The notes: generated by a model from the sequence alone, not told the origin. 64,000 nucleotides of DNA from Escherichia coli (GCF_022846255.1 NZ_AP025682.1); one strand, 5' to 3'. Shown: positions 19,230 through 27,151, counted from the first letter of the stretch. Numbers and translations: made by a program.

Positions 19230-19360
19230 AACCAAACGACTCGGGGTGCCCTTCTGCGTGAAGGCTGAGAAATACCCGTATCACCTGATCTGGATAATGC
19301 CAGCGTAGGGAAGTCACGGACCACCAGGTCATTGCTTCTTCACGTTATGGCAGGAGCAAA
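19230..19360 (+). promoter_or_regulatory. TPP (thiamine pyrophosphate) riboswitch in the thiM leader
   Basis: CGACTCGGGGTGCCCTTCTGCGTGAAGGCTGAGAAATACCCGTATCACCTGATCTGGATAATGCCAGCGTAGGGAAGTCACGG matches the thiM aptamer (thi-box CUGAGA ... ACCUGAUCUGGAUAAUGCCAGCGUAGGGAA); the AGGAG SD just before the ATG is sequestered by the expression platform. Confidence 0.9.
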
Positions 19361-21003: not shown

Positions 21004-21834
21004 ATGAAACCAATGCAGCTAAGAATCACCAGTCGAAAAAAACTCATCGCTTTATTATGCGCTCTTGGGCTAATATCCATCGTTGCGATTCATCCGCGTC
21101 AGACGGTGAATTTTTTCTATTCGACAGCAGTTCAGATTAAAGACTACATCCACTTCTACGGTTATCGCCCGGTTAAATCTTTCGCTATTCGCATTCCTGC
21201 CAGTTACACCATTCACGGAATAGATGTTTCGCGCTGGCAGGAACGGATCGACTGGCAGCGGGTGGCAAAAATGCGCGATAACGGTATTCGCTTACAATTT
21301 GCCTTTATTAAGGCGACGGAAGGCGAAAAGCTGGTGGACCCCTATTTTTCGCGTAACTGGCAACTAAGCCGCGAAAATGGCCTGCTGCGCGGGGCGTATC
21401 ATTATTTTTCCCCGTCGGTATCCGCTTCAGTTCAGGCGCGATTATTTCTGCAAACGGTGGATTTCTCACAAGGCGATTTCCCTGCGGTACTGGACGTAGA
21501 AGAGCGAGGAAAATTATCGGCAAAAGAATTACGCAAGCGGGTAAGTCAGTGGCTAAAAATGGTCGAAAAACGTACGGGAAAAAAGCCAATTATTTACTCA
21601 GGAGCCGTTTTTTATCACACCAATCTGGCGGGCTATTTCAATGAATATCCGTGGTGGGTGGCTCACTATTATCAACGTCGCCCGGACAATGACGGCATGG
21701 CCTGGCGCTTCTGGCAGCATTCCGACCGTGGGCAGGTCGATGGCATTAATGGTCCGGTGGATTTTAATGTGTTTAATGGCACAGAGGAGGAGTTGAGGGA
21801 TTCGTTGATGGGATTAAAGAAACGCCTTAAATAA
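21004..21834 (+). CDS. yegX: GH25-family muramidase-like protein YegX with N-terminal membrane anchor
   Basis: N-terminal hydrophobic segment LIALLCALGLISIVAI; GIDVSRWQ / FAFIKATEG motifs typical of GH25 lysozymes; start could be 21004 or 21013. Confidence 0.85.
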   Translation: MKPMQLRITSRKKLIALLCALGLISIVAIHPRQTVNFFYSTAVQIKDYIHFYGYRPVKSFAIRIPASYTIHGIDVSRWQERIDWQRVAKMRDNGIRLQFAFIKATEGEKLVDPYFSRNWQLSRENGLLRGAYHYFSPSVSASVQARLFLQTVDFSQGDFPAVLDVEERGKLSAKELRKRVSQWLKMVEKRTGKKPIIYSGAVFYHTNLAGYFNEYPWWVAHYYQRRPDNDGMAWRFWQHSDRGQVDGINGPVDFNVFNGTEEELRDSLMGLKKRLK

Positions 21835-21881
21835 GAAGCAGTGATATACTCCTACCAGACTCCCCGGCAGGAAAAAGACAA

Positions 21882-22628
21882 ATGGAACAAGCGCATACCC
21901 AGCTGATTGCCCAACTGAACGAGCGTATTTTAGCGGCGGATAACACGCCGCTTTATATTAAGTTTGCCGAAACGGTAAAAAATGCCGTGCGCAACGGGGT
22001 GCTGGAGCATGGCAATATTTTGCCCGGTGAGCGTGATTTAAGTCAGTTAACCGGCGTTTCGCGCATTACGGTGCGCAAGGCGATGCAGGCGCTGGAAGAA
22101 GAGGGCGTGGTGACGCGTTCGCGTGGTTACGGCACGCAGATCAACAACATCTTCGAATACTCGTTGAAAGAAGCGCGAGGTTTTTCTCAGCAGGTGGTAT
22201 TGCGCGGGAAAAAGCCCGATACGCTATGGGTTAACAAGCGTGTCGTGAAATGTCCCGAAGAAGTCGCGCAGCAGCTGGCGGTCGAAGCAGGAAGTAATGT
22301 CTTTTTGCTTAAGCGTATTCGCTATGTCGATGAAGAGGCGGTATCGATTGAGGAATCGTGGGTTCCGGCGCATTTAATTCATGATGTTGATGCCATCGGA
22401 ATTTCTCTTTATGACTACTTCCGCAGCCAGCACATTTACCCACAACGTACGCGTTCCCGCGTTAGCGCCCGGATGCCGGATGCCGAGTTTCAGTCACATA
22501 TTCAGTTAGATAGCAAAGTACCGGTGCTGGTGATCAAGCAAGTGGCGCTTGACCAACAGCAACGGCCTATTGAGTACAGCATCAGCCACTGTCGCAGCGA
22601 TCTATACGTTTTTGTGTGCGAGGAGTAG
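21882..22628 (+). CDS. yegW: GntR/HutC-family transcriptional regulator YegW
   Basis: 248 aa; N-terminal GntR HTH (LPGERDLSQLTGVSRITVRKAMQALEEEGVV) plus UTRA-like C-terminus. Confidence 0.9.
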   Translation: MEQAHTQLIAQLNERILAADNTPLYIKFAETVKNAVRNGVLEHGNILPGERDLSQLTGVSRITVRKAMQALEEEGVVTRSRGYGTQINNIFEYSLKEARGFSQQVVLRGKKPDTLWVNKRVVKCPEEVAQQLAVEAGSNVFLLKRIRYVDEEAVSIEESWVPAHLIHDVDAIGISLYDYFRSQHIYPQRTRSRVSARMPDAEFQSHIQLDSKVPVLVIKQVALDQQQRPIEYSISHCRSDLYVFVCEE

Positions 22629-23567
22629 TTCCTCGCGCGTTGGCGCACAATCACCGCCCCGATGCCCGACAACCCACGACGCCACTGCATTGCCCAGTAA
22701 TACGGCATCCGCCAGTGGCAGACCAGAGGCCAGCCCGGCAAGTACGCCGCCGGCATGACTGTCGCCCGCCCCAATGGTGTCTACAACTTGCGTTGGAAAT
22801 GCCGGAATGCAGCCAGAAGCGTCGTTGCTGAAATACCATGCGCCCTCTTTATCGAGACGAACGATCAACGGCGCGGCAAATTTCTCCTGCCATTGCTTGC
22901 CTAGTGTTGTTATCTCTGCGGATAGAGCAAAACGTTCGGCGGCAATCTCAGCCTCCTGACGATTGAGTGATACTAAAGGTCGACAGGCCATGATCCGCGC
23001 CAGTAATGCATCCTGGATATCGCCAATACGTGGGCCAAAATCGATAAACGGCGTCACGTCTTGCAGCTTTTCCAGCCATTCCACTAACAATTCGCCGCAG
23101 GGCGAGGCCAGTTGATAACCGGAAAAATAGAGCAGGCTGCCAGGTGCAACGGTTAATCGCGCCAACCATTGGCGATTCCACTGATTTTCCACACCGCTGA
23201 ATGACATAAAAGTGCGTTCGCCATCAGGCTCAACCAGCGCCAGACACCAGCCGTTATCATCTTCGGCGTTATCGATCAGGCTGATTAAGTCCTCTTTTGC
23301 CATCCGGTTGCGAATAATCTCCGCCCACACCCCCTGACCGAGCGGCAAGGCATTACCCGCTTCGATGCCGAGGCGCTTTAATGCCACGGCAATATTCAGT
23401 GCACAGCCGCCAACGTTAACGCTCTGCTGTTTCAGTTCGATATCGCACCCACGCCAGGGGAGGGCATAAGCGTCGGCGATCACATCAATGACCGCCGCGC
23501 CGACGACCATCACCGGCTGACGCGTGGTTAATTCAGGCAGCAGCGTGTGTAATCGAGCGCTGCTCAT
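22602..23567 (-). CDS. yegV: PfkB-family sugar/nucleoside kinase YegV
   Basis: 321 aa; C-terminal DTIGAGDSHAGG PfkB signature; 4-bp overlap with yegU. Confidence 0.9.
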   Translation of the reverse strand: MSSARLHTLLPELTTRQPVMVVGAAVIDVIADAYALPWRGCDIELKQQSVNVGGCALNIAVALKRLGIEAGNALPLGQGVWAEIIRNRMAKEDLISLIDNAEDDNGWCLALVEPDGERTFMSFSGVENQWNRQWLARLTVAPGSLLYFSGYQLASPCGELLVEWLEKLQDVTPFIDFGPRIGDIQDALLARIMACRPLVSLNRQEAEIAAERFALSAEITTLGKQWQEKFAAPLIVRLDKEGAWYFSNDASGCIPAFPTQVVDTIGAGDSHAGGVLAGLASGLPLADAVLLGNAVASWVVGHRGGDCAPTREELLLAHKNV

Positions 23568-24568
23568 ACCGCCTCCCGTTGTTGGCGATACTTCGCCAGC
23601 GCTGTGGCATAGCGGTTGAAATCAAGCTGATTTACTGCATCCAGTTCCGCCTTTAACGCAGGATCGATAGCGTTAACGCCATGCAACGCGCCACAAATTG
23701 CCGTCGCCATAGCACCGATGGTGTCTGTGTCGCCGCCAAGGTTAGCGCAAAGGACGGCGCAACGGTTCGGATCGGTTTGTGCCAGTTCAACCAGCGCAAT
23801 GGCACACGGCACGGACTCAATGGTGCTGGTGCCTGCGCCAACGACCTGATAAAGCTGTTCGCTGGCGGATTCGGTGCCGTCGGCATTGCGCACTATTTTC
23901 AGCGCAATCTCCAGACGTGCCGCCAGTGAGGCGCTGAAGGTAGTGATGCGTTTTTGTTGAGCATGTCGCGCAATTGAGGGCAGTGAATCAACAATCGCTG
24001 ACCAGCTTTCTCCGTCAATGGCACGAGAAATCGCCCATGCGATGACTACCGCCCCCGCAACCGCCAGATCGGATTTATGGGTCGGGCTGGAGGCCAGCGC
24101 CACATCATCAATAAAAGAGTCAATATCGCGCGCCGGAAGCAAACAACCTAATGGCGAGACGCGCATCGCTGCGCCGTTGGTCACGCCGTTATTTTCCAGT
24201 TCAGCAACGGGTTTACCGTCGCGAATGGCGTTAAGCGCAATCTTCGAGGTCGGACCTAGTACGTTTTTGTTAAAGGCGTCGAAACGCAGCGCCCAGTCGA
24301 GAATATTACGCCCAATCAGATCCGGATCGATCTTGCCTTCACGTTCCAGTAACGCATCCGCCAGACACAGCGCCATCGAGGTATCGTCGGTGAATTCGGC
24401 GCGGTTAAAATAACAGGCTGCGTTATTCTCCTTTGGCCCAGGCAGAAAACGGTCAATCCAGCCAAAGTGTGCTTTAACGCGGCTGCGTGGCCAAAGCTCG
24501 GAGGGCATCCCCATCGCATCCCCTAACGCCTGCCCATAAAGAGCACCGAGAATACGTTCTGTTTTCAT
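23564..24568 (-). CDS. yegU: ADP-ribosylglycohydrolase-family protein YegU
   Basis: 334 aa; GALYGQALGDAMGMP N-terminus and GGDTDTIGAMA C-terminal motif of the ADP-ribosylglycohydrolase fold. Confidence 0.9.
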   Translation of the reverse strand: MKTERILGALYGQALGDAMGMPSELWPRSRVKAHFGWIDRFLPGPKENNAACYFNRAEFTDDTSMALCLADALLEREGKIDPDLIGRNILDWALRFDAFNKNVLGPTSKIALNAIRDGKPVAELENNGVTNGAAMRVSPLGCLLPARDIDSFIDDVALASSPTHKSDLAVAGAVVIAWAISRAIDGESWSAIVDSLPSIARHAQQKRITTFSASLAARLEIALKIVRNADGTESASEQLYQVVGAGTSTIESVPCAIALVELAQTDPNRCAVLCANLGGDTDTIGAMATAICGALHGVNAIDPALKAELDAVNQLDFNRYATALAKYRQQREAV

Positions 24569-25842
24569 TTAACTTCCCCTTGTGTCAACGCAATATCGCG
24601 ATCATCGACCTTGATAGCCGTAATTTCGTTGTCGGATTCGCGGAAAAAAATCATGAACAGCACGGCGATAATGGCAATCATCACCGCGCCGAAAGTCCAC
24701 ATCCCGGCCCAGTTGAAAGTCAGTCCGTTTACCGGTTCCTGATAAGCGAACATCTTTTCCATCATCACACCGCCAAGACGATAGCCGAGCAAACTGCCGA
24801 AGCCCTGGCAGCAGAGCGTGATCAGCCCCTGCGCAGCGGTACGCATATGCACGGGGGCTTTTTTATCGACATAGATGTAAGCGGTAACGTAGTAAAAATC
24901 GTAACTTACGCCGTGCAGCAAAATGCCGAGGAACAGTAACGCGTAGGTGAAATATTCATCCGCACTACCGTAAATAAAGAAGCCATAGCGGATCGCAGCG
25001 GTGACCAGACCAAGCAACAATACCTTTTTGATACCAAAGCGTTTGGTAAAAAACGGCAATGCCAGCATAAAGAAGATTTCAGAGAACTGGCCGAGCGTCA
25101 TCCAGCCAGTGGCGTTTTTCATGCCAACTTCGGTCAGATAACCGTTGGCAAAGATGTAATAGAACGCCAGTGGCATCGCAAACAGGAATGAACAGAAGAA
25201 AAAGACGAGGAAGTTCTTATCGCGCAGCAGGATCAGCGCATCCAGGCCGAGCATGACTTTAATATCCATTTTGCCGGTGCTTTTTGGTGGCGTGTCGGGC
25301 AGGAAAAACGCAAACACACCAAGCAGAGCAGAACTTCCGGCGGTAATCAGCAGCGGGATGTTAGTCGGAGAGATATCGGCATAACCCAGCATTTGCGGCA
25401 AAAATCCACATGCCAGACCGGAGGCAATCCAGCCGATAGTGCCCATCACACGAATGCGTGGGAAATCACGCTCCACATCCGGCACGTTGGCAAAAGCGAT
25501 ACTGTTAGTCAGCGCAATGGTCGGCATATAGGTTAGCGAGTAGGCCAGCAGTAACGGGAAGAACCCGGCAAAAGTGGTTTGTTGCGCGGCGAAATACATC
25601 AGCACCGCACCAGCGAACATCAATACCGCCAGCACTTTCTGCGCCGAGAAAAAGCGGTCAGTGATGGAGCCAACCAGAATCGGCGACAGGATCGCCGCAA
25701 TGGCGGTACAGGCATACGACCAGCCAATTTCTCCGGCACTAAAACCGCTTTTACTTAACCACAACCACAATGGCACAAACCACGCGCCCCAGATAAACCA
25801 TTCAACAAACATCATGAACGACAGCTTTGCTGTTGTTTTCAT
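24565..25842 (-). CDS. yegT: nucleoside:H+ symporter-family (MFS) transporter YegT
   Basis: 425 aa, polytopic membrane protein; first gene of yegT-yegU-yegV with 4-bp overlaps. Confidence 0.9.
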   Translation of the reverse strand: MKTTAKLSFMMFVEWFIWGAWFVPLWLWLSKSGFSAGEIGWSYACTAIAAILSPILVGSITDRFFSAQKVLAVLMFAGAVLMYFAAQQTTFAGFFPLLLAYSLTYMPTIALTNSIAFANVPDVERDFPRIRVMGTIGWIASGLACGFLPQMLGYADISPTNIPLLITAGSSALLGVFAFFLPDTPPKSTGKMDIKVMLGLDALILLRDKNFLVFFFCSFLFAMPLAFYYIFANGYLTEVGMKNATGWMTLGQFSEIFFMLALPFFTKRFGIKKVLLLGLVTAAIRYGFFIYGSADEYFTYALLFLGILLHGVSYDFYYVTAYIYVDKKAPVHMRTAAQGLITLCCQGFGSLLGYRLGGVMMEKMFAYQEPVNGLTFNWAGMWTFGAVMIAIIAVLFMIFFRESDNEITAIKVDDRDIALTQGEVK

Positions 25843-26098
25843 CTTTTAATTCCTTCATGACAGGTAATGTAAGGTACGCGATGACAATACCACTTAGTAA
25901 TACCTTTTAAATACCTTTGCGGTGAAAACTTGACCGCGGTAACATTTTTTCTGATGAATCGAGCCAACAGAAAACGCTGAAAAAACATCCAAAAGATGGA
26001 AAAACTCGCCCGTAACGACCAGGATTATGATTGCCCGCAAAAGGCGGGCCAGGACAATCCATAGCCGATATCCAATCGGAATTTACGGGAGCATAGTA

Positions 26099-27151
26099 AT
26101 GACAGATATTGCGCAGTTGCTTGGCAAAGACGCCGACAACCTTTTACAGCACCGTTGTATGACTATTCCTTCTGACCAGCTTTATCTCCCCGGACATGAC
26201 TACGTAGACCGCGTGATGATTGACAATAATCGCCCGCCAGCGGTGTTACGTAATATGCAGACGTTGTACAACACCGGGCGTCTGGCTGGCACAGGATATC
26301 TTTCTATTCTGCCGGTTGACCAGGGCGTTGAGCACTCTGCCGGAGCTTCATTTGCCGCTAACCCGCTCTACTTTGACCCGAAAAACATTGTTGAACTGGC
26401 GATCGAAGCGGGCTGTAACTGTGTGGCGTCAACTTACGGCGTGCTGGCATCGGTATCGCGGCGTTACGCGCATCGCATTCCATTCCTCGTCAAACTTAAT
26501 CACAACGAGACGCTAAGTTACCCGAATACCTACGATCAAACGCTGTATGCCAGCGTGGAGCAGGCGTTCAATATGGGCGCGGTGGCGGTTGGTGCGACTA
26601 TCTATTTTGGCTCGGAAGAGTCACGTCGCCAGATTGAAGAAATTTCTGCGGCTTTTGAACGTGCGCACGAGCTGGGCATGGTGACAGTGCTGTGGGCCTA
26701 TTTGCGTAACTCCGCCTTTAAGAAAGATGGCGTTGATTACCATGTTTCCGCCGACCTGACTGGTCAGGCGAACCATCTGGCGGCAACCATAGGTGCAGAT
26801 ATCGTCAAACAAAAAATGGCGGAAAATAACGGCGGCTATAAAGCGATTAATTACGGTTATACCGACGATCGAGTCTACAGCAAACTGACCAGTGAAAACC
26901 CGATTGACCTGGTGCGTTATCAGTTAGCTAACTGCTATATGGGCCGGGCCGGGTTGATAAACTCCGGCGGTGCTGCAGGCGGTGAAACTGACCTCAGCGA
27001 TGCAGTGCGTACTGCGGTTATCAACAAACGCGCAGGCGGAATGGGGCTGATTCTTGGACGTAAGGCGTTCAAGAAATCGATGGCTGACGGCGTGAAACTG
27101 ATTAACGCCGTGCAGGACGTTTATCTCGATAGCAAAATTACTATCGCCTGA
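26099..27151 (+). CDS. fbaB: class I fructose-bisphosphate aldolase
   Basis: 350 aa from [24 protein letters not shown]; the 374-aa ORF in the track is an upstream extension. Confidence 0.93.

Follow-up and report, generated by a model that had tools for sequence, protein, structure and literature searches.

The yegTUV-yegW locus of Escherichia coli as a candidate repressor-controlled module for uptake, phosphorylation, and cleavage of a noncanonical riboside

In Escherichia coli, pseudouridine catabolism involves the importer PsuT (YeiM), the PfkB kinase PsuK (YeiC), and the metal-dependent glycosidase PsuG (YeiN). In Salmonella, the STM4065-4066-4067 operon encodes a permease, an ARH-family protein, and a PfkB kinase that phosphorylates intact aminoimidazole riboside (PMC3161100). 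Here, we analyzed the E. coli genes yegT, yegU, and yegV, which encode a predicted importer, an ARH-fold hydrolase, and a PfkB kinase, together with the regulator gene yegW. They lie in a 64,000-nucleotide stretch of an E. coli genome (GCF_022846255.1, NZ_AP025682.1), which in its full length is referred to as the window and to which coordinates of the E. coli features refer. We propose that yegTUV and yegW form a repressor-controlled module that imports and cleaves a noncanonical riboside, with the kinase acting before the hydrolase, and we assign this reading a probability of about one-half.

The operon, its repressor, the predicted functions of its products, and the open question of their substrate are already known in the literature. 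Saito et al. (2024) renamed YegW GgaR and, by chromatin immunoprecipitation on microarrays (ChIP-chip), identified the fbaB/yegT spacer as its sole genomic target, with binding within 190 bp upstream of yegT; a second site inside yegT (probe-5, nucleotides 571 to 869 of the open reading frame [ORF]) was bound weakly both in vitro and in ChIP (PMC10819704). The yegTUV genes form a single 3.3-kb mRNA that was undetectable in the wild type and increased ~30-fold upon yegW deletion, and fbaB expression was unchanged by GgaR (PMC10819704). The crystal structure of YegT has been solved (8ZOJ; PMC11979927). Our literature searches returned no activity assigned to YegU or YegV and no further functional study of the genes. 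A preliminary description of this DNA, made from the sequence alone, had proposed a salvage pathway for a ribosyl compound; Saito et al. gave the same three predicted functions and left the enzymatic functions for later study (PMC10819704). That description missed the operon and repressor work, the 8ZOJ structure, and the competing ADP-glucose/glycogen interpretation, and it restates a known open question. What we add is a sharper testable hypothesis and a predicted operator. The genes and their control region are as follows.

21882-22628, plus strand: yegW (ggaR), ORF of 248 amino acids; GntR/HutC-type repressor with winged-helix DNA-binding and UTRA effector domains.
23567-22602, minus strand: yegV, ORF of 321 amino acids; PfkB-family kinase, predicted to be a riboside 5'-OH kinase and not a ribokinase.
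24568-23564, minus strand: yegU, ORF of 334 amino acids; ARH-fold metal-dependent glycohydrolase, predicted to cut a ribosyl-aglycone bond.
25842-24565, minus strand: yegT, ORF of 425 amino acids; nucleoside:H+ symporter (NHS)-family importer, a member of the major facilitator superfamily (MFS).
25843-26098: divergent yegT-fbaB control region with the yegTUV promoter, to which the published ChIP peak and gel shifts map.

The four ORFs were found exactly as the preliminary description had them, and its domain assignments, on which it had made its reading depend, all passed hidden Markov model (HMM) searches. The curated NCBIfam equivalog cutoffs were reached by none of YegU, YegV, and YegW. Translational coupling of the three operon genes, also proposed earlier, is supported at the sequence level by two genuine 4-bp ATGA overlaps, one at yegT/yegU (...GGGGAAGTTAAATGAAA), with a Shine-Dalgarno-like GGGGAAG ahead of it, and one at yegU/yegV (...GGGAGGCGGTATGAGC), preceded by GGGAGG. 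The genes yegW and yegV are convergent, as had been described, and their 3' ends share 27 nucleotides (22602 to 22628), which had gone unmentioned; the pair appears in a published list of overlapping-transcript "excludons." Coexpression of the three genes is borne out by the published transcript, and the dedicated regulatory role of YegW by experiment, with its single target (PMC10819704). The 4.6-kb stretch from 21500 to 26100, which covers the locus and its flanks, was matched in 5,424 of 5,426 complete E. coli genomes (best identity, 98.7%), in which the genes are annotated as yegT, yegU, yegV, yegW, and yegX. Given that best identity, the source strain is not one of those genomes. The yegTUV-yegW locus is core E. 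coli.

A first search for close homologues gave Enterobacteriaceae only, and other phyla were reached by a representative search, which drew 6,959 YegU relatives from 1.84 billion proteins, and by an alignment-driven scan of one genome per species, which gave 79 loci, 78 of them usable. Eleven of the 12 longest YegU relatives (~600 to 760 amino acids) are ARH-PfkB fusions, and both domain orders occur. A PfkB kinase lies within three genes of the YegU-type hydrolase in 63 of the 78 loci; the same distance holds for an importer of a recognized family in 56, for a GntR/UTRA regulator in 48, and for all three together in 41. The importer belongs to different families in different lineages: NHS in 25 loci (Enterobacterales, Vibrio, and Gilliamella), NCS1 in 16 (including Aeromonas, Bacilli, Lactobacillales, Negativicutes, and Chloroflexi; family independently confirmed by Pfam), and PnuC in 15, mainly from Lachnospiraceae and other Clostridia. 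Four PnuC-family proteins that were tested scored 96 to 150 bits on TIGR01528 (cutoff, 42). In two further loci, a PfkB-ARH fusion adjoins an energy-coupling factor module made up of EcfT and two ATPases (L091, 1424 to 5719) and an ARH-PfkB fusion adjoins an ATP-binding cassette (ABC) importer (L092, 354 to 8247). The module as a whole extends over Enterobacterales, Vibrio, Aeromonas, Bacilli, Lactobacillales, Negativicutes, Lachnospiraceae, Actinobacteria, and Chloroflexi. Because the two-enzyme core is often fused and the importer has been displaced among families that all include riboside carriers, we regard this as strong evidence that a single short pathway handles a ribosyl compound brought in from outside. 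The general idea of the preliminary description, uptake and processing of a ribosyl compound, therefore fits the conservation of the module, its swapped importers, and its fusions. The term "salvage" is not established, as the output may simply be ribose 5-phosphate.

Clustering of 390 neighboring ORFs gave no further recurring enzyme, and the only neighbors that recur reflect enterobacterial synteny (fbaB, thiD, and thiM), so a further conserved pathway enzyme was dropped from consideration. Rfam scans of 18 loci, 17 of which were chosen as having no nearby GntR gene, detected no riboswitch upstream of the hydrolase operons and only unrelated thiamine pyrophosphate (TPP) riboswitches nearby; a riboswitch was thus abandoned as a clue to the ligand.

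In the pathway that we propose, a riboside would enter the cell by YegT-mediated proton symport, and YegV would phosphorylate the 5'-OH of the intact riboside, which would thereby be trapped. YegU would then hydrolyze the C1'-aglycone bond of the phosphate ester, yielding the free aglycone and ribose 5-phosphate, the latter presumably passing to the pentose phosphate pathway. YegW (GgaR) would repress the operon through a GGTAT array over the promoter and a second site in yegT, and a phosphate-bearing ligand, for which the product of YegV is the most plausible candidate, would release it. We infer every enzymatic step of this model, as well as the order of the steps, the kind of inducer, and the class of substrate.

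YegT is an NHS-family member by sequence, and nucleoside transport itself is only predicted. It scored 653 bits on NCBIfam TIGR00889 (cutoff, 446), matched Pfam PF03825 (Nuc_H_symport) over its full length (E value, 1.5e-183), and matched the 8ZOJ chain across all 425 residues. The GXXXD protonation motif of NHS transporters, located in transmembrane helix 10 (PMC11979927), is present as G311 and D315. Published isothermal titration calorimetry detected no significant binding of YegT to U, A, C, or G, and the residues of NupG that contact the base are not conserved in YegT (PMC11979927). A noncanonical riboside is suggested because of this absence of significant binding of canonical nucleosides, the selectivity of ARH1 and ARH3 for α-1'' linkages, and the link of the module to PnuC. 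Candidate substrates are a matter of speculation: pyridinium ribosides such as nicotinamide riboside, imidazole ribosides, α-ribosides such as those of cobamide lower ligands, ribosyl-amino acids, and modified RNA nucleosides are not discriminated by our analysis.

YegU matched Pfam PF03747 (ADP_ribosyl_GH; E value, 1.6e-66), and its AlphaFold model (pLDDT, 97.4) superposes on MJ1187 (TM score, 0.81), on a Thermus ARH-related protein, and on DraG and ARH3 (TM scores for these two, 0.73 to 0.78). The metal and catalytic motifs are kept, comprising D17, E24 (the Glu flap, aligned with Glu41 of human ARH3), T60-D61-D62, and D280-D282-T283, and most of these positions are invariant or nearly so among 38 relatives. 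In ARH enzymes, two metals grip the cis 2'',3''-diol, and every characterized substrate has a phosphate ester at the 5'' position of the ribose that is cleaved; ARH1 and ARH3 favor α-1'' linkages (PMC7050489). YegU is thus predicted to be an ARH-fold two-metal glycohydrolase that cuts a ribosyl-aglycone bond. The adenine clamp of ARH3 (Phe143 and Tyr149) aligns to N126 and V129 of YegU, in a loop where the alignment is gapped and in a family whose classes differ in adenine binding. A characterized close structural relative was sought: PDB sequence searches and Foldseek searches with YegU returned only MJ1187 and the ARH3, DraG, and Tri1 classes, with no solved relative of known small-molecule function, and the nearest, MJ1187, is listed in the PDB as a hypothetical protein/ribosylglycohydrolase, for which we found no assigned function.

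Membership in the ARH family, with the metal center and the Glu flap intact, would also fit a genuine de-ADP-ribosylating enzyme of the DraG, ARH1/3, or Tri1-like kind, in which case the neighbors of yegU would be functionally unrelated to it. The matches of YegU to the DraG and Tri1 models that speak for such an enzyme fall far under the cutoffs (79 versus 337 bits and 69 versus 490 bits, respectively), the locus holds no ADP-ribosyltransferase partner, and the tie of YegU to a PfkB kinase and an importer is kept across phyla, often as a fusion to the kinase. Searches of the PADLOC library with YegT, YegU, YegV, YegW, and YegX gave zero matches, and a defense-system reading of the locus was dropped on that account. 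We therefore consider a de-ADP-ribosylating YegU highly improbable.

YegV matched Pfam PF00294 (PfkB; E value, 1.1e-55) and carries the GG motif (G53-G54) and the GAGD motif (G266-A267-G268-D269). Its position in the pathway depends on whether it is a ribokinase. The preliminary description had YegT importing the riboside, YegU releasing free ribose and base, and YegV acting as a second ribokinase to form ribose 5-phosphate. This order is the simplest reading and parallels the route from Rih nucleoside hydrolases to RbsK; in both NCBIfam and the PDB, the top-scoring relative of YegV is ribokinase, with the match covering the full length of YegV; and Bacteroides Rus loci place ribokinases beside nucleoside-cleaving enzymes that include ADP-ribosylglycohydrolases. 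The ARH-PfkB fusions fit either order. YegV, however, scored only 82.6 bits on the ribokinase model TIGR02152 (cutoff, 299.65) and 59.9 bits on NF008353 (cutoff, 341), and it matched a pseudouridine kinase model at 19 bits (E value, 5.6e-4).

We aligned the 63 module-linked PfkB kinases with E. coli ribokinase, using a reference sequence identical to 1GQT. Ribokinase D16, which binds O2' and O3' of ribose, corresponds to D28 of YegV, Asn46 to N58, and D255 to D269, and these positions are invariant in the 63 kinases; the NxxE motif (N202 and E205 in YegV) is invariant or nearly so. Lys43 of ribokinase, on the other hand, is absent from all 63, being replaced by Cys in 53 (C55 in YegV), Ser in 4, Gly in 1, and a gap in 5. 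The Asn14 position is hydrophobic in 60 of 63 (V26 in YegV), and the Glu143 position, A154 in YegV, is variable. In ribokinases, Lys43 and Glu143 show strict conservation and occupy the space that holds the base in nucleoside kinases (PMC7797080); Lys43 is essential in the human enzyme, whose activity is abolished by the K54A and K54N substitutions (PMC12621476). Since the ribofuranose-binding and catalytic residues are kept and Lys43 is lost, YegV looks like a riboside kinase, probably one that acts on the 5' position of a ribofuranosyl group, has space at C1', and phosphorylates the intact riboside.

Other considerations bear on the order as well. Pnu transporters are facilitators, and a colocalized kinase traps the molecule that they transport (PMC5749112); the PnuC-type importers of the module would thus normally depend on a kinase that acts on the imported compound itself. 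A second ribokinase would join an E. coli complement that already includes RbsK, and the effector pocket of YegW, described below, looks phosphate binding. The loss of Lys43, the reliance of Pnu-type importers on kinase trapping, and the 5''-phosphate ester carried by ARH substrates all favor a kinase-first order. Phosphorylation followed by cleavage is therefore probably the better account, and the cleave-then-phosphorylate order put forward in the preliminary description seems unlikely to us.

YegW matched the Pfam GntR (residues 29 to 87; E value, 1.4e-15) and UTRA (residues 108 to 242; E value, 2e-36) domains, and because both were found, we place it in the HutC subfamily. Its best PDB relative is NagR/YvoA (E value, 6e-23), in which T90, R133, R135, S165, I166, and Y167 coordinate the phosphate of GlcNAc-6-P (PMC4333415). 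All six have counterparts in YegW (S102, R145, R147, S175, L176, and Y177), and these positions are kept in 44, 43, 34, 45, 45, and 42, respectively, of 45 module-linked regulators. Because the phosphate-coordinating residues of NagR are kept, the alignment suggests that the inducer of YegW is a phosphate-bearing ligand, most simply the product of YegV.

No operator motif was defined for GgaR by Saito et al. (PMC10819704). We predict that direct GGTAT repeats are the GgaR operator, which is a new and testable prediction, and we locate two candidate sites.

25873-25918, minus strand: predicted primary GgaR operator, AAAGGTATTTAAAAGGTATTACTAAGTGGTATTGTCATCGCGTACC, 30 to 75 nucleotides upstream of the yegT ATG.
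25020-25035, minus strand: predicted secondary GgaR operator inside yegT, GGTATCAAAAAGGTAT, ORF nucleotides 808 to 823, within probe-5.

The primary site contains three direct GGTAT(T) repeats (25915 to 25911, 25904 to 25900, and 25891 to 25887) followed by GTACC (25877 to 25873). The pattern GGTAT-N6-GGTAT has exactly two matches in the 64-kb window (0.08 expected), one in the promoter array and one in the yegT interior, and both coincide with the two published GgaR-bound regions. Among the 25 loci with an NHS importer, 23 have at least two GGTAT repeats at 11-nucleotide spacing upstream of the NHS gene, with diverging flanks, in Enterobacterales, Vibrio, and Gilliamella. The exact intragenic motif is kept in 9 of 22 NHS genes, including those of Vibrio, Budvicia, and Pectobacterium; this retention exceeds the prediction for synonymous drift, yet the encoded peptide, FGIKKVL, is itself invariant. 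Possible roles of the intragenic site include looping and a roadblock, and codon constraint from FGIKKVL is a further possibility. Consensus scans of the locus for promoters and terminators gave nothing beyond shuffle expectation, and the scan of the yegT-fbaB spacer (25843 to 26098) gave no strong sigma-70 match.

The published model of GgaR differs from ours in that the repressor senses ADP-glucose and controls glycogen, with YegT, YegU, and YegV handling ADP-glucose or feeding glycogen synthesis. In gel shifts, GgaR was freed from DNA by 10 to 100 μM ADP-glucose and not by ADP or glucose; deletion of yegW gave 2 to 3 times more glycogen and poor growth on M9 glucose; 1% glucose raised yegTUV mRNA ~3-fold in a GgaR-dependent manner; and the yegV deletion figures among low-glycogen mutants (PMC10819704). 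The effector tests, however, covered just three compounds (PMC10819704), no Yeg protein has been shown to act on ADP-glucose, and a kinase has no obvious role on that molecule. PnuT, the one Pnu-family carrier studied in vitro, does not transport phosphorylated forms of its substrate (PMC5749112), which would make a nucleotide sugar an unlikely cargo for the PnuC-family importers of the module; YegU has no aligned ARH3 adenine clamp; and the module has been conserved together with importers of riboside type, which points in another direction. The glycogen and growth phenotypes could be indirect, arising from ~30-fold overexpression of a transporter and two nucleotide- or riboside-active enzymes, and a phosphate-type pocket in YegW may account for the effect of ADP-glucose in vitro. 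We judge the ADP-glucose/glycogen model of the system, as a whole, quite improbable.

Several points weigh against a riboside pathway with the kinase acting first. The sole reported effector of GgaR is ADP-glucose, and the reported phenotypes (glycogen, biofilm, starvation survival, and growth) are ones that such a pathway predicts in no case (PMC10819704). No enzymatic assay of YegU or YegV has been published. NagR-type phosphate ligands may be common among HutC regulators generally. The equivalent of Glu143 is Glu in 19 of the 63 kinases, at a position where the alignment is less certain, and hydrolysis alone could also draw flux through a facilitator. For YegU, the gapped clamp loop makes the lack of an adenine site a weak inference, and the chemistry is not safely extrapolated from ARH1 and ARH3 because these prefer α-1'' linkages and ordinary nucleosides are β. 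Finally, the 78 loci were annotated with home-made six-frame ORFs labeled by phmmer and HMM searches.

A broader form of the proposal, in which YegU-type proteins constitute a widespread, unrecognized class of ARH enzymes that serve small-molecule catabolism and not the reversal of ADP-ribosylation, cutting the PfkB-made 5'-phosphate of a noncanonical riboside, and in which ADP-glucose is a mere mimic of the inducer, is more tentative, and we hold it at somewhat less than even odds.

The neighborhood of the locus comprises thiM-thiD and yegX (a GH25 enzyme) on one side and fbaB and gatY on the other. A TPP riboswitch (RF00059, 71 bits) lies upstream of thiM-thiD (19232 to 19328, plus strand), and thiMD, yegX, and yegW are all on the plus strand, with intervening gaps of just 55 and 47 nucleotides. 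In Lactobacillales, a TPP riboswitch occurs near an ARH-NCS1-PfkB module in two loci (L010, 11315 to 11405; L061, 16135 to 16235), and L010 also has TenA. We considered a thiamine link from thiMD beside yegX-yegW in enterics and from TenA and the TPP riboswitch in Lactobacillales and rejected it as too weak and probably a coincidence. On the fbaB side, the mechanically called ORF begins at 26027 and carries a 24-residue extension, the likely true start being MTDIAQLL at 26099; an imperfect 17-nucleotide inverted repeat (26022 to 26060) lies near the fbaB start.

Some of the loci depart from the common arrangement. In two Vibrio operons (L028, 10047 to 11324; L029, 9893 to 11239), one more MFS gene separates the kinase gene from the regulator gene; the copy in L028 scored 430 bits on the L-lactate MFS model NF049980, above the cutoff, and it was only by BLAST clustering that the copy in L029 was assigned to the same group. 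The ABC importer beside a fusion gene comes with both a GntR/UTRA regulator and another ARH paralogue. In Brenneria and Edwardsiella (L030, L034, and L036), the YegU-type gene is present, but neither a kinase nor an NHS importer gene adjoins it. The regulator has been retained in Edwardsiella, and in Brenneria the GGTAT repeat is still found upstream of the ARH gene (7784 to 7799). These loci look decayed or rearranged.

The E. coli K-12 genes that still lack a known function include yegT, yegU, and yegV, and gut Firmicutes commonly carry the same hydrolase-kinase-importer module. Should the kinase-then-hydrolase model be true, it would give the ARH fold a new enzymatic role, identify a nutrient or signal contested among gut bacteria, and prompt a rereading of the ADP-glucose/glycogen interpretation of GgaR.

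A parallel in logic is that with pseudouridine catabolism. As we propose for yegTUV, the PsuT/PsuK/PsuG pathway phosphorylates the intact nucleoside at the 5' position and then cleaves it to ribose 5-phosphate and base. PsuG differs from YegU in having an indigoidine synthase A-like fold and in cleaving a C-glycoside, and the likeness to PsuK and PsuG is, by analogy, one of mechanism and not of family membership.

An experimental precedent is offered by the Salmonella STM4065-4066-4067 operon, which likewise combines a permease, a PfkB riboside kinase, and an ARH-family protein. A GntR regulator, STM4068, presumably lies beside it, and the cluster is, to our knowledge, absent from E. coli K-12. 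Its kinase is of a PfkB lineage different from that of YegV, and its native substrate is also uncertain. We rejected YegV as an orthologue of that kinase: 1TYY, which we take to be the structure of the Salmonella aminoimidazole riboside kinase, was not among the PDB matches of YegV at E values of ≤1e-5. On this basis, we regard the Salmonella cluster as a module that runs parallel to yegTUV-yegW without being identical to it.

Ribose phosphate is also made by a PfkB kinase together with a glycosidic-bond hydrolase in the systems of RbsK with RihA-C and in the Bacteroides Rus loci, some of which include ADP-ribosylglycohydrolases, as yegTUV does. There, the kinase is a true ribokinase that acts after hydrolysis, whereas YegV lacks the ribokinase-defining residues. 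Pairing of a PnuC-family facilitator with a kinase, typical of metabolic trapping, is shared by the PnuC-NadR and PnuT-thiamine kinase systems and the Clostridia YegU/YegV modules. Unlike these two systems, E. coli would use a proton symporter, and the pathway would go on to cleavage and not to cofactor synthesis.

With the ARH family (human ARH1 and ARH3, DraG, Tri1, and MJ1187), YegU has in common the fold (TM scores, 0.73 to 0.81), the binuclear-metal ligands, and the Glu flap. The substrates of the known members are ADP-ribosyl-protein, poly(ADP-ribose), O-acetyl-ADP-ribose, and α-NAD+. YegU differs from ARH3 in lacking aligned adenine-stacking residues and from the known ARH enzymes in its place in a transport and kinase operon. 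YegW, for its part, shares with the HutC repressors NagR and DasR the two-domain architecture and the phosphate-coordinating residues of UTRA; NagR and DasR use the palindromic dre site, whereas the operator predicted for YegW consists of direct GGTAT repeats at 11- to 13-nucleotide spacing.

The two earlier studies of this locus (PMC10819704 and PMC11979927) deal with the same genes, in the same order, with the single-target repressor, the 3.3-kb mRNA, and the two binding regions; they read the locus in terms of ADP-glucose and glycogen and give no operator motif, enzymatic function, or comparative context. In contrast, we propose an operator and argue for a riboside kinase-then-glycohydrolase model. 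To what was known, the present analysis adds the cross-phylum module with its swapped importers and fusions, the argument that YegV is not a ribokinase, the phosphate-type effector pocket of YegW, and the GGTAT operator.

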